This document shows positions 12,745 to 51,868 of a stretch of 64,000 nucleotides of DNA, in pieces (positions within the stretch are counted from its first letter, which is position 1; every line of letters starts with the position of its first letter). The DNA lies in assembly GCA_000004985.1 (NCBI GenBank), contig GG738898.1. The stretch is one strand, 5' to 3'. Under the pieces are notes generated by a model. That model did no database searches. It worked only from the letters and a program-made list of their open reading frames with translations, and was not told the DNA's origin. Source of the DNA: Naegleria gruberi. Taxonomy: Eukaryota. The position numbers and the translations under genes were made by a program.

Positions 12745-15532
12745 TTACAAAACAAAATTGAGAAGGACAATCAAGAAGGCACCAATAAGGAGTGAATAGA
12801 AATTCTTAGGTGCCTTGCTGAGGACCATTTCCAATTCTGTTTGTTGGATATTGAAAGTGCTTGAAATGACCATACTGAAATTTTGATCGCCGACATTGTT
12901 TTCATTTGCCATGACGTTTACAGTGCAAATGTCACTCTTAGTAGTAAAGTACACCTGTTCGACAGTATTAACCTTGTCCAACATTCCATTCCCTAAATAT
13001 TCTTCACCACCCGTACAATGAACAGAAAGATCCAAATCATTGATTAATTTGGTAACATTGGAAGTCATGTCTGATTGAGAAGCTCTATCATACCATGTAA
13101 GAGTAATCTTGATAGCATTCCTAGCTTCGAAAAGGAAGGTATAGGATTTCTTTTGTCCTGGTGAAATTGGTTGTCTATTCAAAACTCTGAGAGTATCTGG
13201 ATTGGAGAATTTCATAACAGTGTCCAAACTAACTGTACCATAACCATAAATAGGATTTGGAGAAGAATAACTTGAAATATCAATGGAAGGATCAGTGAGA
13301 GATGAATAGATGGCACCTTCAACTGGAAGTGCAGAGTGAATAAGGAAGGCCTTAATCAAAGTACCTGACACACTCAATGTTTCATTCTCTCCCAAAGTGT
13401 TATTCAAATTGAAATATCTCAAACGTTCATAATTATTAGCAGTGAGATATTCTCTAACAAGTGCAGCCGAACCCGACTAAATAACACCATGTGCCAAATT
13501 CAGTAAATACAATAACTTATTAAAGTAAAAAATAATAGAAATAACATACGACACCTGGTGTTGACATTGATGTTCCGCTCAATGCCACAAAGTCACAAGT
13601 TGATCCACTCTTTGCAGACATTATGAAATGACCTGGGGCCATAACATCTGGCTTGTTTCTTCCATCCATGGTTGGACCTTTTCCTGAGAAGAGAGGCATT
13701 CCCATACTGAAAGTTGAATACTTGCTTTCACATTTGGAGGCACTCATTGAGGTAGAATTACAATAGGATGTGTAATAGTTGTGAACTGCTCCGACAGAGA
13801 GTAAATTCTTGGCTGTTGCTGGAGCTGAAATACTTTCTAAAAGTGAAATATTGCCACTGTTACCTGAAGCTTGGACAATAATCATGTCATCGTGGTCATA
13901 GAGGAATTGATCCATCAAACTTGCTTGGTCACTGTAGCCAAGACATTGTTGGTGACATTTCACACCCTTCTCTGCCATGCATTCAGTGTCATTGACTATG
14001 GCTCCTCTTTGTCCATTCTGTTTCAATCGGTAACAAACTCTGTTATAGTCGCAAGAGTAACTTGAAGGTTTGCATCCCCAAGAGTTGGAGTGAATTCTAG
14101 AGCCAGCCAAATTGTAAGCTCTATTTAACATTCCTTGTAAATCATAGTTTGATGCCACAGAACCATCAGCACTTGAAGAGAAATCAATCACATAGAGTTT
14201 TGCATTCTTGGCCACACCATTTCTTTTCGACATTGAACTGGAAGGATATCTAGATGACAAATCACCAGCAATAATACCAGCAACGTGTGAGCCGTGTCCA
14301 TTGGTATCAATCATGTCCATTCCTTCAATACCAACAACCTTTTTATGATTGAAATTAATGGATGTATAGTTGGTTGCATTCTTATCGTAGAATAAACAGT
14401 GCTCTACAGAAATTCCTGTATCAATATAGGAAACAATTTGATTCTTTCCTGTAATTCCGTTATCCCAAATGGTTGATCCTAATTCTTCAATTCTTCCTCC
14501 TTGAACAACATTGTTCATTCCCTCATCGAAGAGTTGAGTTTCAGTAGCTCTGGAAACATGGATAATTGACTCATCAGAGGAAAGTTGTTCATAGAGAGAT
14601 TGGGCTAATTGTACATTCAAATTCTCAAGCATTCTTCTATTTCTTGTTGGTTCAGACTCCACTTCAATGAATTGATTTGGGCTCAATGAAAATAACTTAT
14701 TTCTTGGGTGGAGGAGTTGAGTGAGTGAAAAATCAAACTTTCCGCTCAATTCCTTATTCATCCATTCAGTATTGGATTCAAAGGTTGATTCTAATCCTCT
14801 CACTCTGGACAATTCACTTTCAGACATACTCCTTACAGTGGTTCTCACTCGCTTGTTTACTTCTCCCTTTAACCAATTCGAAAGCTTTCTCTCTGAAAAT
14901 CCATGAGATGTTTCAATCAAGAGTGGAGCTCTACTCAATGATAAAACATCACTAATAGGAATTGAAATTCTATGAGAGGAAGGAACTCTCTTAATCCACT
15001 CAATATTCAATGATTTCATTCTTGATGAAGCCAAAGAGAGAATAACCTTCGGAGTTGCTAGTACCTTAAAGATTCTATTGTTTGTTCCGTATTGTGGTAC
15101 AAAGTTCTTGTCAAAGTTTGATGTTTTCTTCATCAAATCATTTTCCTTATTATCATCGTTGTTTTCAAAGGCAAGAGCTATTTGTTGGAGAAGTGAATCT
15201 TTCAAAAGGACTCCATCAGCAATTTTAATATAAGTCAATAAGTAATCATTCGGTCTATCAAAGAGCATTGCTTTGTATTGTTCAATATTAGAACTAATTG
15301 AAGTTGAAGCAACTTTCACTTGTATCTTTGTTTGATGATGAAAGGAGAGAAATAATTTGGCCAAACAAGGACCCACCGATTCAAATCTTGATATTTCTGT
15401 TGCATTTACATTCCCCAACAGACAGAACAACACAACGATCATCATCATTGCAACAATTAAAAAAGCAGAAGTAACACCTCTTCCGCTGTTGTTACTCGTC
15501 CTCATCCTCTTCTTCTTCTCTAATATCTCCAT
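12745..15532 (-). CDS. Subtilisin-like serine protease (peptidase S8) with N-terminal signal/TM. Exons: 13550..15532, 12745..13476.
   Basis: Catalytic triad contexts DTGISVEHC, HGSHVAGIIAG and GTSMSTPGV|SGSAALVREYL, where the Ser motif spans a 73-nt intron (gtatgt...tttag). ATG at 15532. Confidence 0.85.
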
Positions 15533-27900: not shown

Positions 27901-30900
27901 TTACCTGTACAATAACATGTACCCGTCTTTGTGCAGGTACCATGTGAATTACAAGTGGTTGCAGCAGAACAAGCAATATCACATTTATCTCCAACAAATC
28001 CACTCTTGCAAGAAGAACAAAATTCTCCATCAAAATTTCCATTACAAACACATTTGAAATTGGAATCACAAGAACCATGAGAGTTACAAGTTTCTGTTGG
28101 TGAACACATTGCAGTTGAGCAAGTTTCTCCTGAATATGCTGGACTGCAGCTAGTGCAGGTATTATTCTTATTATTCCAATTGGCAACACATTCACATGTA
28201 TTTGGAGCAATACATTTTCCTCTAGTGCTTCCACCACAAACATTGCTGTCACTCTTTGGAATACCGTAACAGGAAAAGCTTTGACAAATTGATCCAGAGT
28301 ATCCAGACCTACATGAACAATTATTAGGAGCAGTACATTCACCTCTGCTACCACACACAGAACTATCAGTTGCAGGAGTATTATAACAAACAGGTATGTC
28401 ACACTTGGATCCCATATAACCAGTCTTACAAGATAAACAGAATGTAGAAGGATCAAAATTACCCTTACAAATACATGTATCAGTGGCATTACATGCACCA
28501 CGCAAAGAACATCCTCCCAAAATTTCACTCTTACCATTACATGTTGGATTATCACATTTAGCACCTGTTGAGCCAGATTTACAAATGCAAGTATCTGGGG
28601 CAACACATGAACCCTTTCCAGAACATACAGATGCATCACTATTAGTCTTTGAGAAACATACTGGTTTTTCACAATTAGTTCCATCATAACCAGTTACACA
28701 ACGACAAACATCTTGAGAAATACAAGAACCCTTACCAGAGCAAACATCATAGGCTTTTGCCAATTTTCCAAAGCAAGTAGTGGTGTCTGGAAGATAAAGT
28801 CCATAATGACAACTTGATTCTGGGAAATAGCTACATGACTCATTCTTTGGTAATGACCAGAAAGCACTGGCTTGGTCGTACATTACTTCACAGGCAGCTC
28901 TACAGAATGGAACAGAATTGGCTGTGGTGTTTTTGCACGACATGAAAGTTCTGTAACATGCATTTCTTTTGATATGAATCAAACAATCGGCAGTAACGCA
29001 GTTAGGATTGTACAATGATCCCATTTGGAATGTTGAATTAGCTTGAGCATCCAATTTAGCAAGATTTGCAGCAAGGAAAATAGAGGCTTCACCTGCACTC
29101 TTTGCTCCTGACATTAAATTCAAATTGTACAATGGTAAAATGACGTCAGCAGCATAACAGAATGGAGTAGAAGAGGAAGACATTTCATTGATACAAGCTG
29201 GAGTAAGTGAGAAGGAGGTCTTTTCACAATTGTTACCTTCATATCCAGAATCACATATGCATCTTCCATTCTTACAAGTACCGTGGTCAGAACAGGAAAC
29301 ATCATAGCATTGATCAACATAATTAATCTCTGATGAGCAACCCTCATTGTCATTCAAAGAACCACACAAAGTTTCCAGAGAGTTATTTCCAACTAAATAA
29401 GGCATCAACATAGTTTCGCATGCACTTTTACAGATTGGATTGTATACTCCTTTAACAAGTTCAGTAACCCAAGAGCACATTGGGAAATGTGAATAGCAAG
29501 AATATCTCTTGTAGACCAGACGACAAGCTTCTGTGGTACATGCAATCATGAGTTGTTCGGCCATTGTACGAGATGACTGATCCAAAACTTTGAGAGCAGC
29601 AATTCTGACCTGTGGTACTGCAACCTCACCTGTATAATTTGCTAACAGATTATATCCGTCTTGTGACAAGTACTGCATTATATAGTGTTCAACACCAGCA
29701 GCTACACAAAAAGGTGTGTTTGCGGCTTGCATGCCAGTGTAACAAGTGACAGCAGCATATTTTGAACAGGTTGGACCATAATAAAAGTAATCTGGTGTGG
29801 ACTGACAAATACATTTTCCGGCAAGACAAGTTCCATTAACACATTGGTTATTACATGAATCTGTTTCAGTGTCATTTACAATCACCAAGTCTTGGCACAT
29901 AGTCCCAGTGTATCCTGTGTCACAAGAGCATTTTCCTTCCAAACAAGTTCCATTATAACATTTTATGCTAAAACAAAGATCTGTTTGATTTTTGACTACA
30001 TCTGATTGATCACACAATGTTCCAATGTAACCAGAGTCACAATTACAAACACCCTCAATACATTTTCCATGTACACATACAATATCTTTACACTTATTTT
30101 GAGTGGAGGTGTTGTTTGTGCTTGTATCATTTGATGGAATAGTATTATTATTGGAACTTGGGAGAGTTGAATTTGAGGTTGTCGAATTTGAGGAACTATC
30201 AGGACTGGTTCCATTGTAAGTTTGAGTACTGTTACTTGTACTATTATAATCAGTAATATTAGAGGAGTTTGGGCTTGTTGGATCCCTGCTTGTGTTGTTT
30301 GTGGCTGTGTCATTGGATAATGTAGTATTTTTTCCATGGGAGCTATCAAAACTAGTTCCATTATTTCCTTGAGTATTGTTGCTACTAGTACTATTGTGGT
30401 TAGTAATATTAGTGGAGCTTGGACTTGATGGATCAATATTCGTGTTGTTAGTAGTTGTTGTGTTATTGGATAAAGTGGTATTACTTGTATTGGTTGTGTT
30501 GCTGGTTGTTGAAGCATTGGCAACTGTGTCAGTATTGACAGAAGGTTCTAAAAGTTTCAATTCACAGAAAGTTCCATTATATCCCTGTCCACAAACGCAA
30601 ACGTTATCAGTGGTACAATTACCATGAGAGTTACAAACAAAAGAATCATAGGAACGTGTTCCATTACATACATAATAACTTGATGAACAATCGCTTCCAT
30701 AGAAAGATGCCTTACATGAGCAACCAGAAAAAGTGCAATTACCATTTCCTGAACAAGCAAGTTTTGATGATTGGGGAATGTCATTACAAATAGCTTCATT
30801 TTCACAAAAAGTTCCATTGTAACCAGCTTTGCATAAACATTGATTAAGGCCTATACATTGACCATTTCCAGAACAAACATTGTCCTCTGTTTCCAACAAT

Positions 30901-34173: not shown

Positions 34174-36640
34174 ATGTCTTCATCATCCACCACGCGAATT
34201 GTTATTGGTGATGATTTTGGAGGCGATAACGACACGAAGAACAACAAGAATGGATCATCATCATCGGATGAATCCACATCAGAATTACATGATTTGGCAC
34301 AGATTCTTAGGCTCATGTTGATCGCCGAGAATGAAAATGCCTTTAGGGATGTTAATGTTGAAACTCTTGAACAAATGATCATGATGAATGATGAGAGGGA
34401 TTTGATTGCGAGCTTTGAGATGGTGAGTGGAATGAGACCAAGTTCTAGGGTGAATGTTCAACAAATTAAAGAGGAATATAAGAAGAGTAAGAAAATTCCT
34501 TCTTCTTCTACTCTTAATAATAGTGATAGTATTATTATTGTTGATGATGAGGAGAAGAGCAAGACGGATAACCTAGTTGTGGTTGAAAATCAACATCCGA
34601 TTGCTGATGATTCTATTGAAATTATAATGGAAGATTCTGGTGTAAGAATTCCAGAACCACCAGTATTGGAAGTGGAACAAATTCCTATCGCTGTTCAAAT
34701 GAAGTTGAGAGTGTTAAAGTTAAAATTGAACGATGCAGAACTTTTGAAGGAATATTCAGATCATCAACTTGCACAAGTATTGGCAGAACATGAAAATAAT
34801 GTGCAATCTTCAGCTGATTATATCATGCAACAGTATGTCAAGAAGACTGTGCAGAGTACTCTATCCGATAGTGATTCTGAGGACACTGGTAAATATTCAC
34901 AATTCACAAAGGATGTTTTGAGAAAGAGATTGAAAATGGGTGGATTTACCGAATATGAAAATGCAACTGATGAAACGCTATCTATTCTGCTTGATGTTGG
35001 AGGTGGTGATGTTGAATGTGCATTGCAGAATATCAGAGGAACAAATTCAGGAACACCTAATGTTATTCATACTGCAAGATACATTTCAGATCCTAATTTA
35101 CCATGGGACAAAAATCCAACAAAACCAATAACGGAAGAGGGTAAAGAGGCATTACAAAAGGAAGGAAGATCTGTAACCACCATTAATCAACTTCCTTATG
35201 ATACTCTTGAACATGTAAGTTTTAATTCATCAAAATTTGGTTGACACTTTACATAGGTTTTTGAATATTTGGGAAGAAAAGATGTTCTGGTTTCGTCCTC
35301 TGTAAATCAATATTTCAATAAGGTATCAGGCTCTGATTATTTTTGGACTACTAAACAAGAAAAAGGAAAAGCTGGATTGATTGACAATTACGAAATGGAA
35401 AGATATAACACCTTTACAAAAAATCAAACACATTACGGGAATTGGAAACTTTGGAGATTAGATAATTTATTTTACACAAAAATTAAGCAACCACCATATG
35501 TTACCACAGAAAAAGAAGTGACAGAAGAGTCACCAATAATAGAATTAGAGGATGGAAGACCACCATTCAAACAAAAGTATGCTAAATACAGAAAACAAAA
35601 ATTGATTAGAGAAAGAGTTGATATAATAGAAAAGAAAATACGAGATAGCAAATTTAATGAACGACAAAATGTTGGATATGAATTTGGAGAGCATGTATAC
35701 AGATCTTGGATTGGATTTTTAGTGGTACTGGCAATTTCAGCCATTATAGGACTTATATTAGTCCCACTTTCTATGGACGAGTTTATTCCAAACGATATTG
35801 GCACCTACTATTGGTTGATTTCATGGTTGAGTCTTGGTGTTATCACAATTCCTTACTTTTACATAATGTTATTCCATCACTCACACAGATTTGATTTCTA
35901 TCCTATTTGGAGTAAGAGACAGTTGAATGGTGAGGAAAGAATGGATCATGGAGGTGAAATGTTCATTCTCTTCTCTTCAACATGGACTTGGCTTCCATAC
36001 ATTTTCCTTGTTGCAGGTCTGAAATATGCAGTCTATGCGGAGCAACCAATATTGAGCTATATTGCCATTCCAGGGTACGTGTTGGCCATGATGTCTTTCT
36101 TTTGCAGTGCACCAACTTTAGGATCAACGTAAGTTTTTCTTTGTTTGTGTGAAATAACACCCTCAAAGGTTAAAAGGTAGTGATAAGGAGCGAGCAGCAT
36201 TCTTTATTTCTTCATTCTTCTATGGAACCATGTTACTTTCCCTGCAGGTATTCCTCATATTACTCTTTGCTAAAATTGATGGCTTAGAATATGCACTCAA
36301 TATTCCATTCTCAATAGTGTTCATTCCAGGATATGTTTCGTTATTGTGCTTCCCAATGGGATTTTTCTTCACTGCCTTTTTTGCCATGGTAATGGGATCT
36401 GACAGTTGGTGGTCAGCATTATTGTCAGCTTCAGGTTTTGGATTTGTTGTAGCACTCGTTATCAGTCCTCTCTTAATTACAGCTCCATTTGTGGCAGCTG
36501 TTTTGGACTCGTTCATTCTCCAATCCATTTTCCCATTCGTTGCGATCTTTTCCATTACCTATGGACTGGGTATTATAATTCTATGCATTGCTTTGTCTGT
36601 TGTTTGCTTCATTATGTGTGTTTGTAGAGATTATGATTAA
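34174..36640 (+). CDS. UBA/CUE-like domain plus multi-pass membrane domain protein. Exons: 34174..35214, 35257..36128, 36181..36640.
   Basis: A-tract before ATG 34174 (the ORF is open from 33949). Two UBA/CUE-like helical motifs (LAQILRLMLIAENENAF.., LAQVLAEHENNVQSSADYIMQQY). Introns gtaagt...acatag (42 nt, phase 0) and gtaagt...aaaaggtag (52 nt, phase 2). The TM region contains an internal repeat (IAIPGYVLAMMSFF / VFIPGYVSLLCFP). Confidence 0.6.
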
Positions 36641-38054: not shown

Positions 38055-40052
38055 TCATTGTAAATCAGAAACATAGGTATTCATGGGCAATTTGCAGACT
38101 CCTTGTTTTTCCAAATATATTTCCTGATTGGCTCTATATCTTGGTGTGAAAAGAAATGAAAGTTTTTCATTCGATTTGATGGCATTAAAAGATGTTTCAC
38201 TCAAATGAACTTGTCCTGGTTGACCTGTTGCTTCTATTAATTGTGTTACCAAAACATCACTTCCAAACAAGTCATATGTTCTCTTCATATGTCCAACTAC
38301 AGCTGCTGTCACTCCTCTATGTGAGGTGTGAATACCAATTCTAACCTGTAATGAAGAATCTCCAATCAGATCTGAATTTTTCGAAACCAATTGTTCCAAT
38401 TCTTGAATCATTGACAATCCTGCTCGAACGCAACACATTGTTCCATTGGTACTTGGTATTTCATTTGTGGGTGAGGTTAACATGTTATTTACATTGGAAT
38501 TTGTCTTGGAAATTTGTTTCTTATTATTAGTGGATGAATCATTATCCAATCCAGAAGCAACAAAATAACAATCACCAATAGTCTTGATCTTTTCCAGTGT
38601 TGAATTATGTTGTTTCGAATAAACAATATCATCAAAGCATGAGAAAATATCATGCAACATATGTACAACAATTGAAGGTGATTTTCCATTGGCAAGCTCT
38701 GTAAAACCCACAATATCACAATACATCATTGTGCAATTCTGTAACTCATCAATGACCTTCTCTCCTGCAGTCAACCGATGAACAATATTCTTTGGAAAGA
38801 TCTTTTCCGTAATTTTAGTAATTTGCTCCTCATGTGTAACCATTGATTTGGTATCTCTCACAAATGCAACAAAAGATGATTTCTTACTGATTGGATCAAT
38901 AATTTCTGAAACTCTCAATTCAATTGGAATGGGTTTTCCCTCTTTAGTTTGACCTTTCACAGATCTAACACAATCTACGACTCGTTTCTCTCCGGTTGTC
39001 AAGTATCTCTTCAGGAAATCATCATGGTTCATTCGAATTTTAGGTGTGCACAACATTTTAACATTCTTTCCAATGACTTCCTTTTTAGAATAGTGAAATG
39101 TGGCAGTGGATGCCGAATTGAATATTTGAATAGTTCCCTGTTCATTGATGGAAATAATTGGAATGACTGAAATCTCTGTAATGGCTTCTCCAAATTGAAT
39201 AGATGCCAATTTCTTGATATCTTCCTCACTTTGTTCTAATTGGTTAATGTAGGCAGCAAAGTGAAGTTGTTCTAATTTTCTAAAAACCATCATTTTCAAC
39301 TTGATTGGGAATGCTTTCTTTTGTAAAGTGTTTTTTCCATTTAGGAATCGTGTTTTCATGACTTCTTTCTTTCTTCGTTCCTTTTCTTGTTGACTCACAA
39401 GTACATATGGAATTTTCAAATCTTTCATAGATGTTGACAAGCTCACTGACATGTTCAAATCCAATGATGTATCACCAATGAAATCTTCAATGGCTCTCTT
39501 GATTTCCATGGTTGATTCATGAGATAATAACTCACTCAAATATTCTCCCATGACTGCCAGAGAATAAAATCCAAACACTTCCTCTGCCTGATTATTAAGA
39601 TATTCAATAGTGAGATTGCTATCGAATACAATAATTGGACAACCACACGACTGAAACTGTTCTACCAAATCGTTCAGTAATGAGTATTCCTCAAGAGTTG
39701 TAATTACAAATGCCTCCTCTTCCATTTCATTTCTCTCTGCCTCTGAAGTGCTATCAGTACTGTATTCGGATGATTTATAAGTGCTCGAATAGTTGGATGT
39801 TGACGCAATACTGGAACTATTACTGATTGTACTGTTGGTCTTGTTTAGTTTGCTCAACATTCGAGAGCTTATACCTCTGGAATTGTTGTGTTGTAGCTTT
39901 GCTTGTAAGTTTGGTTTCGAATTGAATTTTGAAGAGCTGACATTGCGTTTGTTTAGTGTTGCCAAGGAGTGTGTGTTTTGATTGGCGACCTCATCTCCAT
40001 CATTATCATTAGTTGTTGGTTTGATAGGAACTAGCTTTTGTTTGCTGGACAT
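38055..40052 (-). CDS. PAS-PAS-class III nucleotidyl (adenylyl/guanylyl) cyclase
   Basis: ATG at 40052. Ser-rich N-terminus. Two PAS-like blocks. Cyclase motifs MMYCDIVGFTELAN, KTIGDCYFVASGL, RIGIHTSHRGVTAAVVGHMKRTYDLFGSDV. Both metal-binding Asp residues are present. Confidence 0.8.
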   Translation of the reverse strand: MSSKQKLVPIKPTTNDNDGDEVANQNTHSLATLNKRNVSSSKFNSKPNLQAKLQHNNSRGISSRMLSKLNKTNSTISNSSSIASTSNYSSTYKSSEYSTDSTSEAERNEMEEEAFVITTLEEYSLLNDLVEQFQSCGCPIIVFDSNLTIEYLNNQAEEVFGFYSLAVMGEYLSELLSHESTMEIKRAIEDFIGDTSLDLNMSVSLSTSMKDLKIPYVLVSQQEKERRKKEVMKTRFLNGKNTLQKKAFPIKLKMMVFRKLEQLHFAAYINQLEQSEEDIKKLASIQFGEAITEISVIPIISINEQGTIQIFNSASTATFHYSKKEVIGKNVKMLCTPKIRMNHDDFLKRYLTTGEKRVVDCVRSVKGQTKEGKPIPIELRVSEIIDPISKKSSFVAFVRDTKSMVTHEEQITKITEKIFPKNIVHRLTAGEKVIDELQNCTMMYCDIVGFTELANGKSPSIVVHMLHDIFSCFDDIVYSKQHNSTLEKIKTIGDCYFVASGLDNDSSTNNKKQISKTNSNVNNMLTSPTNEIPSTNGTMCCVRAGLSMIQELEQLVSKNSDLIGDSSLQVRIGIHTSHRGVTAAVVGHMKRTYDLFGSDVLVTQLIEATGQPGQVHLSETSFNAIKSNEKLSFLFTPRYRANQEIYLEKQGVCKLPMNTYVSDLQ

Positions 40053-40504: not shown

Positions 40505-41725
40505 TTAAAGATTGCTATAGTAATTTTCATAATAATCATCAACATTCTCATAGCTATAGATATACTGAGAATCGGTAAAATCTTCCTCCCTCTGACTGTC
40601 ATCCAAATAATCTTTAAATACATTGAGAAATGGCTCAATGTTTCCATCTGGATTATGACCTTTCTTTGAGTTGTGATCTTCAATAATGGCAAAGTAAATT
40701 CTATCGAAATAACCTTCATACTTTTCCAGTTGAGTTTTAAAAGCTTTTGCCATCTGATTAGGGTTATTCTTAAAGGCCCCACATCCAAACGCAGACAATA
40801 CCAAATTTCTAACACCATTCAAAATGGCCACCTTGAATATTGCCTCAATAGTTCCATTGTTTCGTCCATCAATTTTTTCTGTATTTTTCGATTTGTTTGG
40901 TACAGCAGCTGCAGTAATGACATCCAATAATCTTGGAACTTGCAAGAGTGGATAACCTTTTGCTTCGCACCCTCTGAAAAACAATACATTTGGTGAGAAG
41001 CATGCACTCTCATGCCCAATAGGATAGCTCCACTTTCTATGTTTATCCAATTGATCAACCTTATTATCCAAACATTGATACAAGTTAGATCTTCTGAATA
41101 GATTTTCCTCCTGAGCTCCACCTATTTTCATTCAAATAACTTGGTTATTAAACTACTTACAACCTGATTGATAACCACCTCCAGGAGTATTTGGATTGGC
41201 CATATTGAGAATGGCTACTCTCTCATTTTGCATCTTTCCACTCTTTACCAATTCATCCTGGATCTTGAATGCAACATCCACACAATCTCCATTAATTACC
41301 AAAACTCTAGTCTTTTCCTGAATACTATTATCAGAAGAATTCAATGTAGGAATCACCTGCCCCTCATTTCTAATAAACAGTGTTCCAACACTCGACTGAA
41401 TCATCAACTCTTCCTTCAATGAAACCTTTTCTACAATTTCATCATCATCAATTCGATTTTTAGAATTTCTATGATTTTTAAAATTGTACAAATAGTATTG
41501 ATCCCTACAAATATCAATCGTTTGTCTCTGAACAAGTATTCGGAGCCTTTTAATTTTCTTATAATCAGCCTTTTCTAGACAATCATCATATTGATTTCGG
41601 AATTGAGAGGGATCATAGGGATAGGTATTAAAAGTTGAATGTTTCTTGTGGAAATCATCAACTTGAAAGAAAGAGGTGGGACAATTCGAGTGTTTTTTGG
41701 TGGAGAAATTGTTGGAGGTGATCAT
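40505..41725 (-). CDS. Microbial-type poly(ADP-ribose) glycohydrolase (DUF2263/TIGR02452-like macro-fold). Exons: 41161..41725, 40505..41121.
   Basis: The PARG signature spans the 39-nt intron (gtaagt...aaaatag, phase 1): ILNMANPNTPGGGYQSGC|GAQEENLFRRSNLYQCL, matching GGG-X6-8-QEE followed by (L/S)xRSSxLY. ATG at 41725. Confidence 0.75.
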
Positions 41726-41842: not shown

Positions 41843-41885
41843 GCGTCGATGGTTTAGTGGTAGAATACGGCGTTGCGGTCGACGC
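41843..41885 (+). other. tRNA-like mini-helix / truncated tRNA pseudogene (acceptor plus D-arm only)
   Basis: GCGTCGA tggtttagtggtagaatacggcgttgcgg TCGACGC is a perfect 7-bp acceptor-like stem enclosing a canonical D-loop (AGTGGTAGA). There is no T-arm. It sits 210 bp from the 5S gene. Confidence 0.3.
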
Positions 41886-42092
41886 AGTCAGAAGTAAATT
41901 TTTAGATAGCTGTATGCACTCTGCTCTTACTATTTTAGAAATCAGTTTCATGCATGTATTTACGTAAATGGGCAAATTTTTAGGTATTGAATAAGTATAA
42001 TTATTGAAAAAATAATCTCGGCTTGATCCTCATTTTTTACTGAAATAGTCCACCTCAAAAAAATTTTGAAAATGCATTTCATACTAAACTGC

Positions 42093-42097
42093 AAAAA
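42093..42097 (-). terminator. Pol III oligo-T terminator of the 5S gene
   Basis: TTTTT immediately 3' of the 5S end. Confidence 0.5.
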
Positions 42098-42215
42098 GAC
42101 TACAGCACCACAGGTTCCCAAGTTGTCTCCAACCTCAGTACTGATGTGGCTCGACGATGCTTAACTTCTCAAATCGGACGGGATGAGGTGCATTCATCGT
42201 GATATGGCCGTAGCC
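42098..42215 (-). rRNA. 5S ribosomal RNA gene
   Basis: Minus strand reads GGCTACGGCCATATCACGATGAATGCACCTCATCCCGTCCGATTTGAGAAGTTAAGCATCGTCGAGCCACATCAGTACTGAGGTTGGAGACAACTTGGGAACCTGTGGTGCTGTAGTC. Boxes A and C are conserved. The 3' half is near-identical to Dictyostelium 5S (from memory). Followed by TTTTT. Confidence 0.9.
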
Positions 42216-49881: not shown

Positions 49882-51868
49882 ATGCCGCCAAAAAAAAGTA
49901 AATCTGTTGCTGTTGTTGATAATGAAAATTCTTCATCACCAACCAAGAGAGTTTCCTGTGCAAAGAGTTTTCTTTTTTCTCATGATGAGAGAGGACACAT
50001 CTGGAGGAATTTAATCAATTGGTACGATAATAATAAGAAGGATTTACCTTGGAGAAAAACAATTAAAAGTGCCGATGATGAAGATGATGATGTAAAGGCT
50101 ACGGAAGAACTTCATCAGAGAGCCTATGAAGTGCTGGTGAGTGAGATTATGTTGCAGCAAACTCAGGTAGAAACAGTCAAGACTTACTTTCTCAAGTGGA
50201 TGAAAAGATTTCCGACAGTTAAGGATTTGGCTGATGCTACTGTTGATGATGCTGTTGGAATTTGGAGTGGTCTTGGTAAGTTTTATTCAATGATTTATCA
50301 ATATTAATTTGAATATATATTTAACTATTTAATTATTGCCAATAATATTAAATATATTAAAATTGAAACTCTTTGGAAAATTAATTTATATTAATATTAA
50401 TATTATAATAGGATATTACAGAAGAGCCAGATATTTGTACAATGCTGCAAAGTATATAGTGGAAAAGATTAACAAACCAATTAAAAACGAGGAAATAATA
50501 TCCGATGATGAAGATGATGATGAGGAAAAGAAACGAATCATTTACAAATTACCAGACAATGTGAAGGATTTAATGCAATTACCAGGTGTTGGAAGGTATA
50601 CTGCTGGAGCTATCGCTTCCATTGCATTTTCAAGGACTGCCTCTGTGGTGGATGGTAATGTTTTTCGTGTATTTGCCAGATTAAAGAGGATTGAGGAAGA
50701 TATTGCAGTTAACAAGACAGCCAATACTGTATTTTGGCCAATGGCAGACAATTTAATTCAACACTATAGAGATATTGAAGATACAGTGCTGGAGAAGGAA
50801 GATTTGGAACTCAAACATAGATACAATGTGACTGGAGATTTTAATCAGGCTGTTATGGAGCTGGGAAGAACAGTATGCATTCCAAGAAATCCTAAATGTA
50901 CAGAATGTCCTCTTGCTGAGGTTTGTGAGGCAAATAAGGCATTGGAAAAGGAGGAAATTGCCACTGTTGAAATTTATCCAGTGAAAAACAAAAAGACCAA
51001 AAAGAGAACTCAAGTTGTTTCATGTTGCATTTTCTATAAGGAGGGAGATGTTGATAGTTGCCTCTTTGAAAAACGACCAAAGGAGACTCTATTGGGTGGA
51101 ACGTGGCATTTTCCATTTGTTATCATTCAAGATACCAAAGCAGAGGAAGAAGAAAATGAAGAAGATAGTGAGGATGAAGAGGGATCTAAAAAGAAGAAAC
51201 CAAAAAAGCAAGCCAAAAAGACTAAGGCAACAACAAAAGCAGCAGCCTCCTCATCTGAATCAGAACATTTTATCAAACTGAAAGAATTTCTTGTGAAGGA
51301 GGGATTTGTTCAAGACAAGTCGATACCTTTCGAATATCATGCCAGTGTGGATCATGTATTTACTCATATCAATCAGACAAATCATATTTACAGTTGCAGT
51401 GACAAGTATCTGATAAAGGATTTGGAAGATTCAAACAGTGAAGAAGATCAATGGAAGTGGTTTGCAAACTCACAAAGAAAGAGCCAAGGTATTTCAACTG
51501 TTGCCTCAAAGATTTTCAAACAATTCAAAAAGACTTTCAAGAATCAAGATGCTTCACCAATCACTCCTCCAAAGGTCAGATTCAAGACTAAATCTCCATT
51601 CAAATCAACAAGTGCAGAGACAAAGGAAGAAAATTCAGAATCATCTAGTTCTGATGAAGAAGTAATGAAGGATGATGAAGTTGTGAGGATAAGTAAACAG
51701 GAAGTAAAAGAGAAAGTCAAAGATGAAATTAAGCAAGTCAAGATGGAAACTAGACTGTCCAAAAGAGTTGCTAAAAGAACAAGTGAAGAATCAGCCAATC
51801 AATCTGCCAATGAAACACCATCTAAGAAGAAGAAACAAACCAGCATTTCTTCATTTTTCAAGAAATAG
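49882..51868 (+). CDS. MUTYH: MutY/MUTYH adenine DNA glycosylase with a C-terminal MutT/NUDIX-like domain and a Lys/Glu-rich tail. Exons: 49882..50275, 50412..51868.
   Basis: LVSEIMLQQTQVETVKTYFLKWMKRFPTVKDLADA..IWSGLG|YYRRARYLYNAAK (136-nt intron, phase 1). HhH-GPD LPGVGRYTAGAIASIAF, VDGNVFRVFAR. 4Fe-4S motif CIPRNPKCTECPLAEVC. Confidence 0.9.

Follow-up and report, generated by a model that had tools for sequence, protein, structure and literature searches.

Bacterial-type poly(ADP-ribose) glycohydrolases (bactPARGs) form a family whose definition goes back to Slade et al. 2011 (cited in Rack et al. 2020, PMC7050489), and their mechanism and motifs have been described by Rack et al. 2020 (PMC7050489), Cho et al. 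2019 (PMC6445106) and Zaja et al. 2012 (PMC4030884). The family prototype is the enzyme of T. curvata (TcPARG; 3SIG/3SIH), and a second solved member is that of D. radiodurans (DrPARG, DRB0099; 5ZDA-5ZDG), which lacks both the N-terminal helix and the Arg cap and exhibits endo-activity (Cho et al. 2019, PMC6445106). In particular, the choice between exo- and endo-activity is set by a C-terminal ribose cap, which in TcPARG (Arg268/Asp261) makes for an obligate exo-glycohydrolase; this element is variable within the family and absent in DrPARG (PMC6445106). The hydrophobic patch of the diphosphate-binding loop has been defined as G[A,V][F,Y] (Rack et al. 2020, PMC7050489). Besides cleaving poly(ADP-ribose) (PAR), bacterial-type PARGs also strip ADP-ribose from RNA 2'-OH groups and from 5'-phosphate ends (PMC11833690). 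As for their occurrence in eukaryotes, bactPARGs have been reported from all supergroups except Plantae (Perina et al. 2014, PMC4245714, section 3.2), in a set that includes filamentous fungi, Adineta vaga, Monosiga, Bigelowiella and Naegleria gruberi with up to seven members (PMC4245714). Three of these N. gruberi bactPARGs possess the full GGG-X6-8-QEE motif, and the same authors note the presence of PARP-family genes in this organism and call the functionality of its bactPARGs speculative (Perina et al. 2014, PMC4245714).

The gene studied here lies on the minus strand of a 64-kb window, by which we mean the whole stretch of 64,000 nucleotides of N. gruberi DNA that was analysed and whose numbering is used throughout. 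Very probably, the locus is a native two-exon gene, NAEGRDRAFT_72608, encoding a 393-aa single-domain microbial-type PARG (DUF2263/PF10021/TIGR02452), and it is one of several paralogues in N. gruberi. Along its whole length of 393 aa, the protein that we obtain by splicing shows 100% identity to the annotated XP_002672409.1 (EFC39665.1, NAEGRDRAFT_72608, UniProt D2VUB9), whose public entry is titled "predicted protein [Naegleria gruberi]", and close relatives in UniRef already carry the name "Microbial-type PARG catalytic domain-containing protein". As it contains the full motif, NAEGRDRAFT_72608 is evidently one of the N. gruberi copies of Perina et al.; neither its accession nor its locus tag was found mentioned in our literature search or in the supplement to that paper. 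The finding is, in other words, correct and already known, since the gene model is public and the family in N. gruberi was published in 2014, and it carries little significance beyond confirmation. The N. gruberi gene belongs to the eukaryotic bactPARG set of Perina et al. 2014 (PMC4245714) and differs from it in nothing categorical; the Pandoravirus bactPARG copies are grouped with the same eukaryotic set.

The gene is read as follows, all coordinates being on the minus strand. Exon 1 (41725-41161) begins with the ATG at 41725 and encodes residues 1-188 and the first base of the Cys189 codon, that is, a helical extension at the N terminus, the macrodomain's first half and the catalytic loop's GGG (codons of G182-G184 at 41182-41174). 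The intron (41160-41122) is 39 nt long, of phase 1 and 23% GC, and runs GTAAGT...AATAG (GTAAGTAGTTTAATAACCAAGTTATTTGAATGAAAATAG); it interrupts the Cys189 codon as T/GT, between GGG and QEE, and, if translated through, would contribute two in-frame stops, TAG and TGA. Exon 2 (41121-40505) supplies the last two bases of Cys189 and residues 190-393, followed by a TAA stop at 40507-40505. It carries the codons of Q192-E193-E194 (41113-41105), the diphosphate-binding loop G301-C302-G303-A304-F305 (40786-40772), a conserved DHNS-K-HNP-GN-PF segment and a Tyr/acidic C-terminal tail. Without splicing, the ORF from the ATG at 41725 hits a TAG directly after ...PGGGYQSGCK, and the other ORF, closed by the TAA at 40507-40505, opens with MKIGGAQEENLFRR... 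The spliced CDS of 1182 nt, by comparison, gives the full 393 aa, with ...ILNMANPNTPGGGYQSGC contributed by the first exon and GAQEENLFRRSNLYQCL... by the second, or, read contiguously, ...ILNMANPNTPGGGYQSGCGAQEENLFRRSNLYQCL...; the corresponding nucleotide sequence is ...CAATCAGGTT before the exon-exon junction and GTGGAGCTCAGG... after it. In the spliced protein, the signature consists of G182-G183-G184, seven residues (YQSGCGA) and Q192-E193-E194, and the span that encodes this GGG-X7-QEE, with the intron inside, covers 41182-41105. The two-exon structure, the coordinates, the peptide and the length and position of the 39-nt intron had all been given in a preliminary description of this DNA, and each proved right when we re-read the minus strand, as did the statement that the intron falls within the catalytic signature, where it splits the codon of Cys189.

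The family assignment is unambiguous by profile. In Pfam, the protein matches PF10021, the microbial-type PARG catalytic domain, with 94.9 bits against a cut-off of 23.5 (E 7.9e-27), and at E<=1 this is the only match in the Pfam search, with neither a canonical PARG family nor a Macro family appearing. In NCBIfam, TIGR02452 is matched with 140.3 bits against a cut-off of 50 (E 8.3e-41) over profile positions 50-257 (208/266). Since both scores lie far above their cut-offs, the match is far beyond chance. The earlier claim that this is a bacterial-type (DUF2263/TIGR02452) PARG and not a canonical one is therefore upheld, and the suspicion of an unrelated macro-domain family, for which an HMM check had been proposed, finds nothing in its favour: PF10021 is the best profile, the Macro family is not matched and structures of the MacroD kind are far weaker matches. 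A phmmer search of PDB sequences returned only bacterial-type PARGs (T. curvata 3SIG, E 8e-17; D. radiodurans 5ZDx, E ~1e-15). In these alignments, PGGG-x7-QEE aligns to the bacterial QEE and GCGAF to the GCGVF of TcPARG and DrPARG, and E194 falls on the catalytic Glu that was altered in 3SIJ, the structure of the catalytically inactive E115A form of the T. curvata enzyme. The diphosphate loop G301-C302-G303-A304-F305 fits the published patch definition. What is more, 22 columns are invariant across 59 homologues and all of them are present in the N. gruberi protein, among them D147, G183, G188, A191, Q192, E193, E194 and G301-C302-G303. That all invariant residues are kept, in both halves of the gene, argues for a probably functional enzyme and against a decaying copy. 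As to the ribose cap, E336/D337 align near the conserved cap Asp, in alignments to both solved structures that end at residue 335-339.

The AlphaFold2 model, built from the 59-sequence alignment, has a mean pLDDT of 89.1 and a pTM of 0.91. Searched with Foldseek against the PDB, this model finds 3SIH, 3SIG and 3SIJ as its best matches (E 3e-16, target-normalised TM 0.77-0.78), followed by DrPARG, and the top 13 PDB matches are all either TcPARG or DrPARG (E 3e-16 to 8e-11). MacroD2, YmdB and AF1521 come in at E ~1e-5 with a query TM of ~0.3, about 10 orders of magnitude weaker than TcPARG, and no canonical PARG structure is among the best 50 matches. With TcPARG, the Naegleria protein would thus have in common the predicted macrodomain fold (Foldseek E 3e-16, target TM 0.77), and it shares the GGG-X-QEE loop, in which E194 equals E115, the GCG(A/V)F loop and a likewise single-domain architecture with a small N-terminal helical extension. 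It differs in that identity is only ~25%, in that the protein is ~115 residues longer and in that its gene has an intron; the extra residues comprise an N-terminal segment, insertions at 82-97 and 120-139 and the Tyr/acidic C-terminal tail. DrPARG belongs to the same family and has the same catalytic motifs (phmmer E 1e-15; Foldseek E 5e-13), but, unlike it, the Naegleria protein retains a long N-terminal helical region. With the canonical PARGs (human, Tetrahymena), finally, GGG-X6-8-QEE, a proposed oxocarbenium mechanism and the macrodomain core are common property (PMC7050489), whereas the accessory domain and the tyrosine clasp are missing from the Naegleria protein. Namely, membership of the canonical family is recognised by a profile match together with a fused accessory (B) domain, and the Naegleria protein has neither.

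Two further features set the heterolobosean proteins apart as a matter of observation. The Naegleria and Willaertia proteins have a common Tyr/acidic C-terminal tail (residues ~373-393 here, window 40508-40570, minus strand), for instance YIYSYENVDDYYENYYSNL or FDYDYDNM..Y..Y.NL, and, at residues ~14-45, common N-terminal C-P-x-S-F-F and Y-D-P-x-Q-F motifs. Both the tail and the N-terminal motifs are absent from the bacterial structures, and the model predicts them with fairly high confidence.

What, then, speaks for the splice itself? A canonical GTAAGT donor and a TAG acceptor bound the 39 nt, and their excision yields an ungapped alignment with both intronless Willaertia homologues as well as the exact GGG-X7-QEE spacing. 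The public N. gruberi gene model uses exactly the same splice, so that the annotated protein is reproduced residue for residue. A 31-mer across the exon-exon junction had 0 exact matches in JGI metagenome and metatranscriptome contigs. The splice is thus a prediction backed by canonical sites, homology and the public gene model. To place its length in context, the 64-kb window was scanned for GTAAGT-type introns joining long open frames. The candidates (GTAAGT/GTATGT...YAG), all inferred from sequence, lie at 35215-35256 (42 nt), 36129-36180 (52 nt), 50276-50411 (136 nt) and 2061-2203 (143 nt) on the plus strand and at 13477-13549 (73 nt) and 29968-30080 (113 nt) on the minus strand. The 42- and 52-nt candidates have the same GTAAGT...TAG ends as the 39-nt intron. 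Given these other candidates of 42-143 nt, a length of 39 nt is at the short end of the range and is not anomalous here, and the candidates suggest that very short introns (~40-50 nt) are probably normal in the N. gruberi genome. The candidate at 50276-50411 stands before a MutY-like (HhH-GPD + NUDIX_4) ORF.

Comparison with relatives adds a second aspect. The N. lovaniensis homologue has a 79-nt phase-1 intron that splits, as G/GT, the Gly before the Cys (L001:3614-3692), one codon upstream, and a second intron of 128 nt within the SAFG/CGAF diphosphate loop (L001:4032-4159). A Naegleria-like contig from a metagenome (L004) encodes a product with 79% identity to the N. gruberi paralogue; there, a phase-2 intron of 57 nt splits, as GG/A, the Gly after the Cys (L004:260-316). 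Both Willaertia copies are intronless. In the three Naegleria-lineage homologues the introns lie at -2, +1 and +5 with respect to the Cys codon's first base, i.e., at three different sites within 7 nt of catalytic-loop coding sequence, with boundaries uniquely set by GT..AG. Such clustered but non-identical positions, which are of minor interest for intron evolution, could reflect intron sliding or recurrent gain at one hotspot. A metagenome scan with the heterolobosean alignment returned 80 loci, all at <=43% identity, and no further Naegleria-lineage genes.

As regards relatives at the protein level, the nearest are the N. gruberi paralogue NAEGRDRAFT_65063 (51% identity), N. lovaniensis C9374_013900 (52%) and two Willaertia magna proteins (51% and 44%). 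Ranking below the Heterolobosea, metagenomic and EukProt sequences are followed by Adineta, Balamuthia, Anaeramoeba and Pandoravirus, and these in turn by bacteria. Among the best 120 matches there is no protein from N. fowleri, as against two from N. gruberi, one from N. lovaniensis and two from Willaertia; the subfamily may have been lost from this pathogenic species, or it may merely not be annotated or not be in the database. The 64-kb window contains a single bactPARG copy. Its immediate downstream neighbour is a 665-aa PAS-PAS-adenylate/guanylate cyclase (38055-40052, minus strand; PF00989, PF00211), an architecture that is heavily expanded in Naegleria. Upstream, ~370 nt from the PARG start codon, lies a complete 5S rRNA gene (42097-42215, minus strand; Rfam RF00001, 105 bits). 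Further neighbours include a REJ/EGF giant receptor, a WD40 protein, a PDK1-like kinase, a RING protein and a MutY-like glycosylase. An ADP-ribosylation gene cluster was sought around the PARG gene and none was found, the neighbours being unrelated eukaryotic genes, as is to be expected in a eukaryote without operons.

Could the two ORFs be unjoined, with the 39 nt an in-frame insertion containing stops and the locus a disrupted pseudogene? The length of the intron is indeed a multiple of three and very short, and the junction 31-mer found no JGI match. Against this stand the canonical GTAAGT donor and TAG acceptor, the restoration of exact signature spacing and of an ungapped alignment upon excision, the presence of every invariant residue in the two halves, the short introns of two Naegleria-lineage homologues a few nucleotides from the same site, and the other candidate introns (42 and 52 nt) that bridge long open frames in the window. 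Taken together, these observations leave us to regard a pseudogene as very improbable. To the notion that a bacterial contaminant, or a very recent bacterial insertion, has found its way into the assembly we attach practically no credence, even though the family is predominantly bacterial. Namely, the intron is of spliceosomal type, the GC content of the gene (0.34) is that of its flanks (0.33-0.38), eukaryotic genes and a 5S rRNA gene surround it and the annotated protein sits on a 310-kb contig; moreover, there is a paralogue in the same genome, and the nearest relatives are heterolobosean (44-52% identity), while named bacteria reach 39-41% over ~51-69% of the query. On these grounds contamination is rejected, and the preliminary description was right to call the gene native. 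How a native gene of this family came to be in Naegleria is a different matter. One reading, to which we accord slightly less than an even chance, is that the heterolobosean genes go back to a single ancient transfer, from bacteria or by way of giant viruses, into a heterolobosean ancestor and that introns were gained later in Naegleria. The patchy eukaryotic distribution of a mostly bacterial family speaks for such a transfer, as does the favour that reviews show to repeated lateral transfer of ADP-ribosylation genes (PMC8120803). The Naegleria introns are non-identical in position, and no intron is present in the Willaertia copies or in a related metagenomic copy, which is consistent with late gain; the Willaertia copies in particular tip the balance slightly toward introns having been gained late, within Naegleria. 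That said, a neighbour-joining tree (59 sequences, 302 well-occupied columns, Kimura-corrected distances, 100 bootstraps) unites the five heterolobosean proteins in a clade with 100% bootstrap that is not nested inside any named bacterial group, and the deeper nodes on the path have 9-16%, i.e., less than 20%. What is more, the nearest non-heterolobosean matches include eukaryotic sequences (EukProt, and a 60-kb JGI contig with Ras, PP2C, BTB and eIF-2B genes), and the family occurs in five of six supergroups (Perina et al. 2014, PMC4245714). As an alternative origin, the family may have been inherited vertically from an early eukaryote and then lost many times; an ancient acquisition with later intron gain and a retained eukaryotic lineage had both been named in the preliminary description.

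Taking the locus to be a native gene for a microbial-type PARG, one can model the action of its product on the characterised T. curvata and D. radiodurans enzymes. By this analogy, the macrodomain cleft would bind the terminal ADP-ribose of a poly(ADP-ribose) chain, and the G-A-F patch of the diphosphate loop would strain or bend the distal ribose in the direction of the catalytic loop. In QEE, the second Glu (E194) would then serve as the acid/base, protonating the leaving group and activating water against an oxocarbenium intermediate. The ribose-ribose O-glycosidic bond would thereby be cleaved and ADP-ribose freed from the end of the PAR chain, and PARP-made poly(ADP-ribosyl)ation in the amoeba would be reversed. 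The PARP-family proteins of N. gruberi mean that a substrate for a PAR eraser exists. At the same time, given that bacterial-type PARGs also act on RNA and on 5'-phosphate ends, protein-linked PAR need not be the physiological substrate. It is conceivable, yet in our estimate unlikely, that the protein has the same fold and catalysis and that its substrate is ADP-ribosylated nucleic acids, i.e., RNA 2'-OH and 5'-phosphate DNA/RNA ends. An example might be the detoxification of ADP-ribosylating toxins of bacterial prey, which might also explain why there are several paralogues. The family is multi-copy in N. gruberi and is found in other bacterivorous amoebae (Balamuthia, Anaeramoeba, Willaertia) and in Pandoravirus, both of which agree with a nucleic-acid substrate; however, sequence does not separate the two activities and the characterised enzymes perform both, no toxin or ART partner gene was found nearby, and the N. 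gruberi PARPs need an eraser. Somewhat less likely still is the broader proposition that the heterolobosean bactPARGs constitute a distinct eukaryote-adapted subfamily whose main role is nucleic-acid de-ADP-ribosylation and not the erasure of PARP signals. The marks of such a proposed subfamily would be the N-terminal C-P-x-S-F-F / Y-D-P-x-Q-F module, the Tyr/acidic tail and several paralogues per genome. In any case, the newly found de-ADP-ribosylation of RNA and DNA by bacterial-type PARGs raises the question of a role for it in bacterivorous amoebae.

Two minor observations may be added. A metagenome contig (ERZ27315067 k141_178385; L005:3001-3870 and downstream) contains a heterolobosean-like bactPARG homologue, 49% identical, with an in-frame stop at a conserved Gly (RNI*SIEAIL vs RNxG[ST]IEAIL), after which the frame is conserved; the stop could be a sequencing error, the mark of a pseudogene or a reassigned stop codon. 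In the N. gruberi window, between the PARG gene and the 5S gene, there is a tRNA-like hairpin of 44 nt (41843-41886, plus strand) with a perfect 7-bp acceptor stem and a D-arm (GCGTCGA-TG-GTTTAGTGGTAGAAT...TCGACGC-A) and without anticodon and T arms. It scores 19.6 bits against the Rfam tRNA model, whose threshold is 29 bits (E 0.14), has a fold z-score of -4.2 and may be what is left of a truncated tRNA, or else an element derived from a tRNA.
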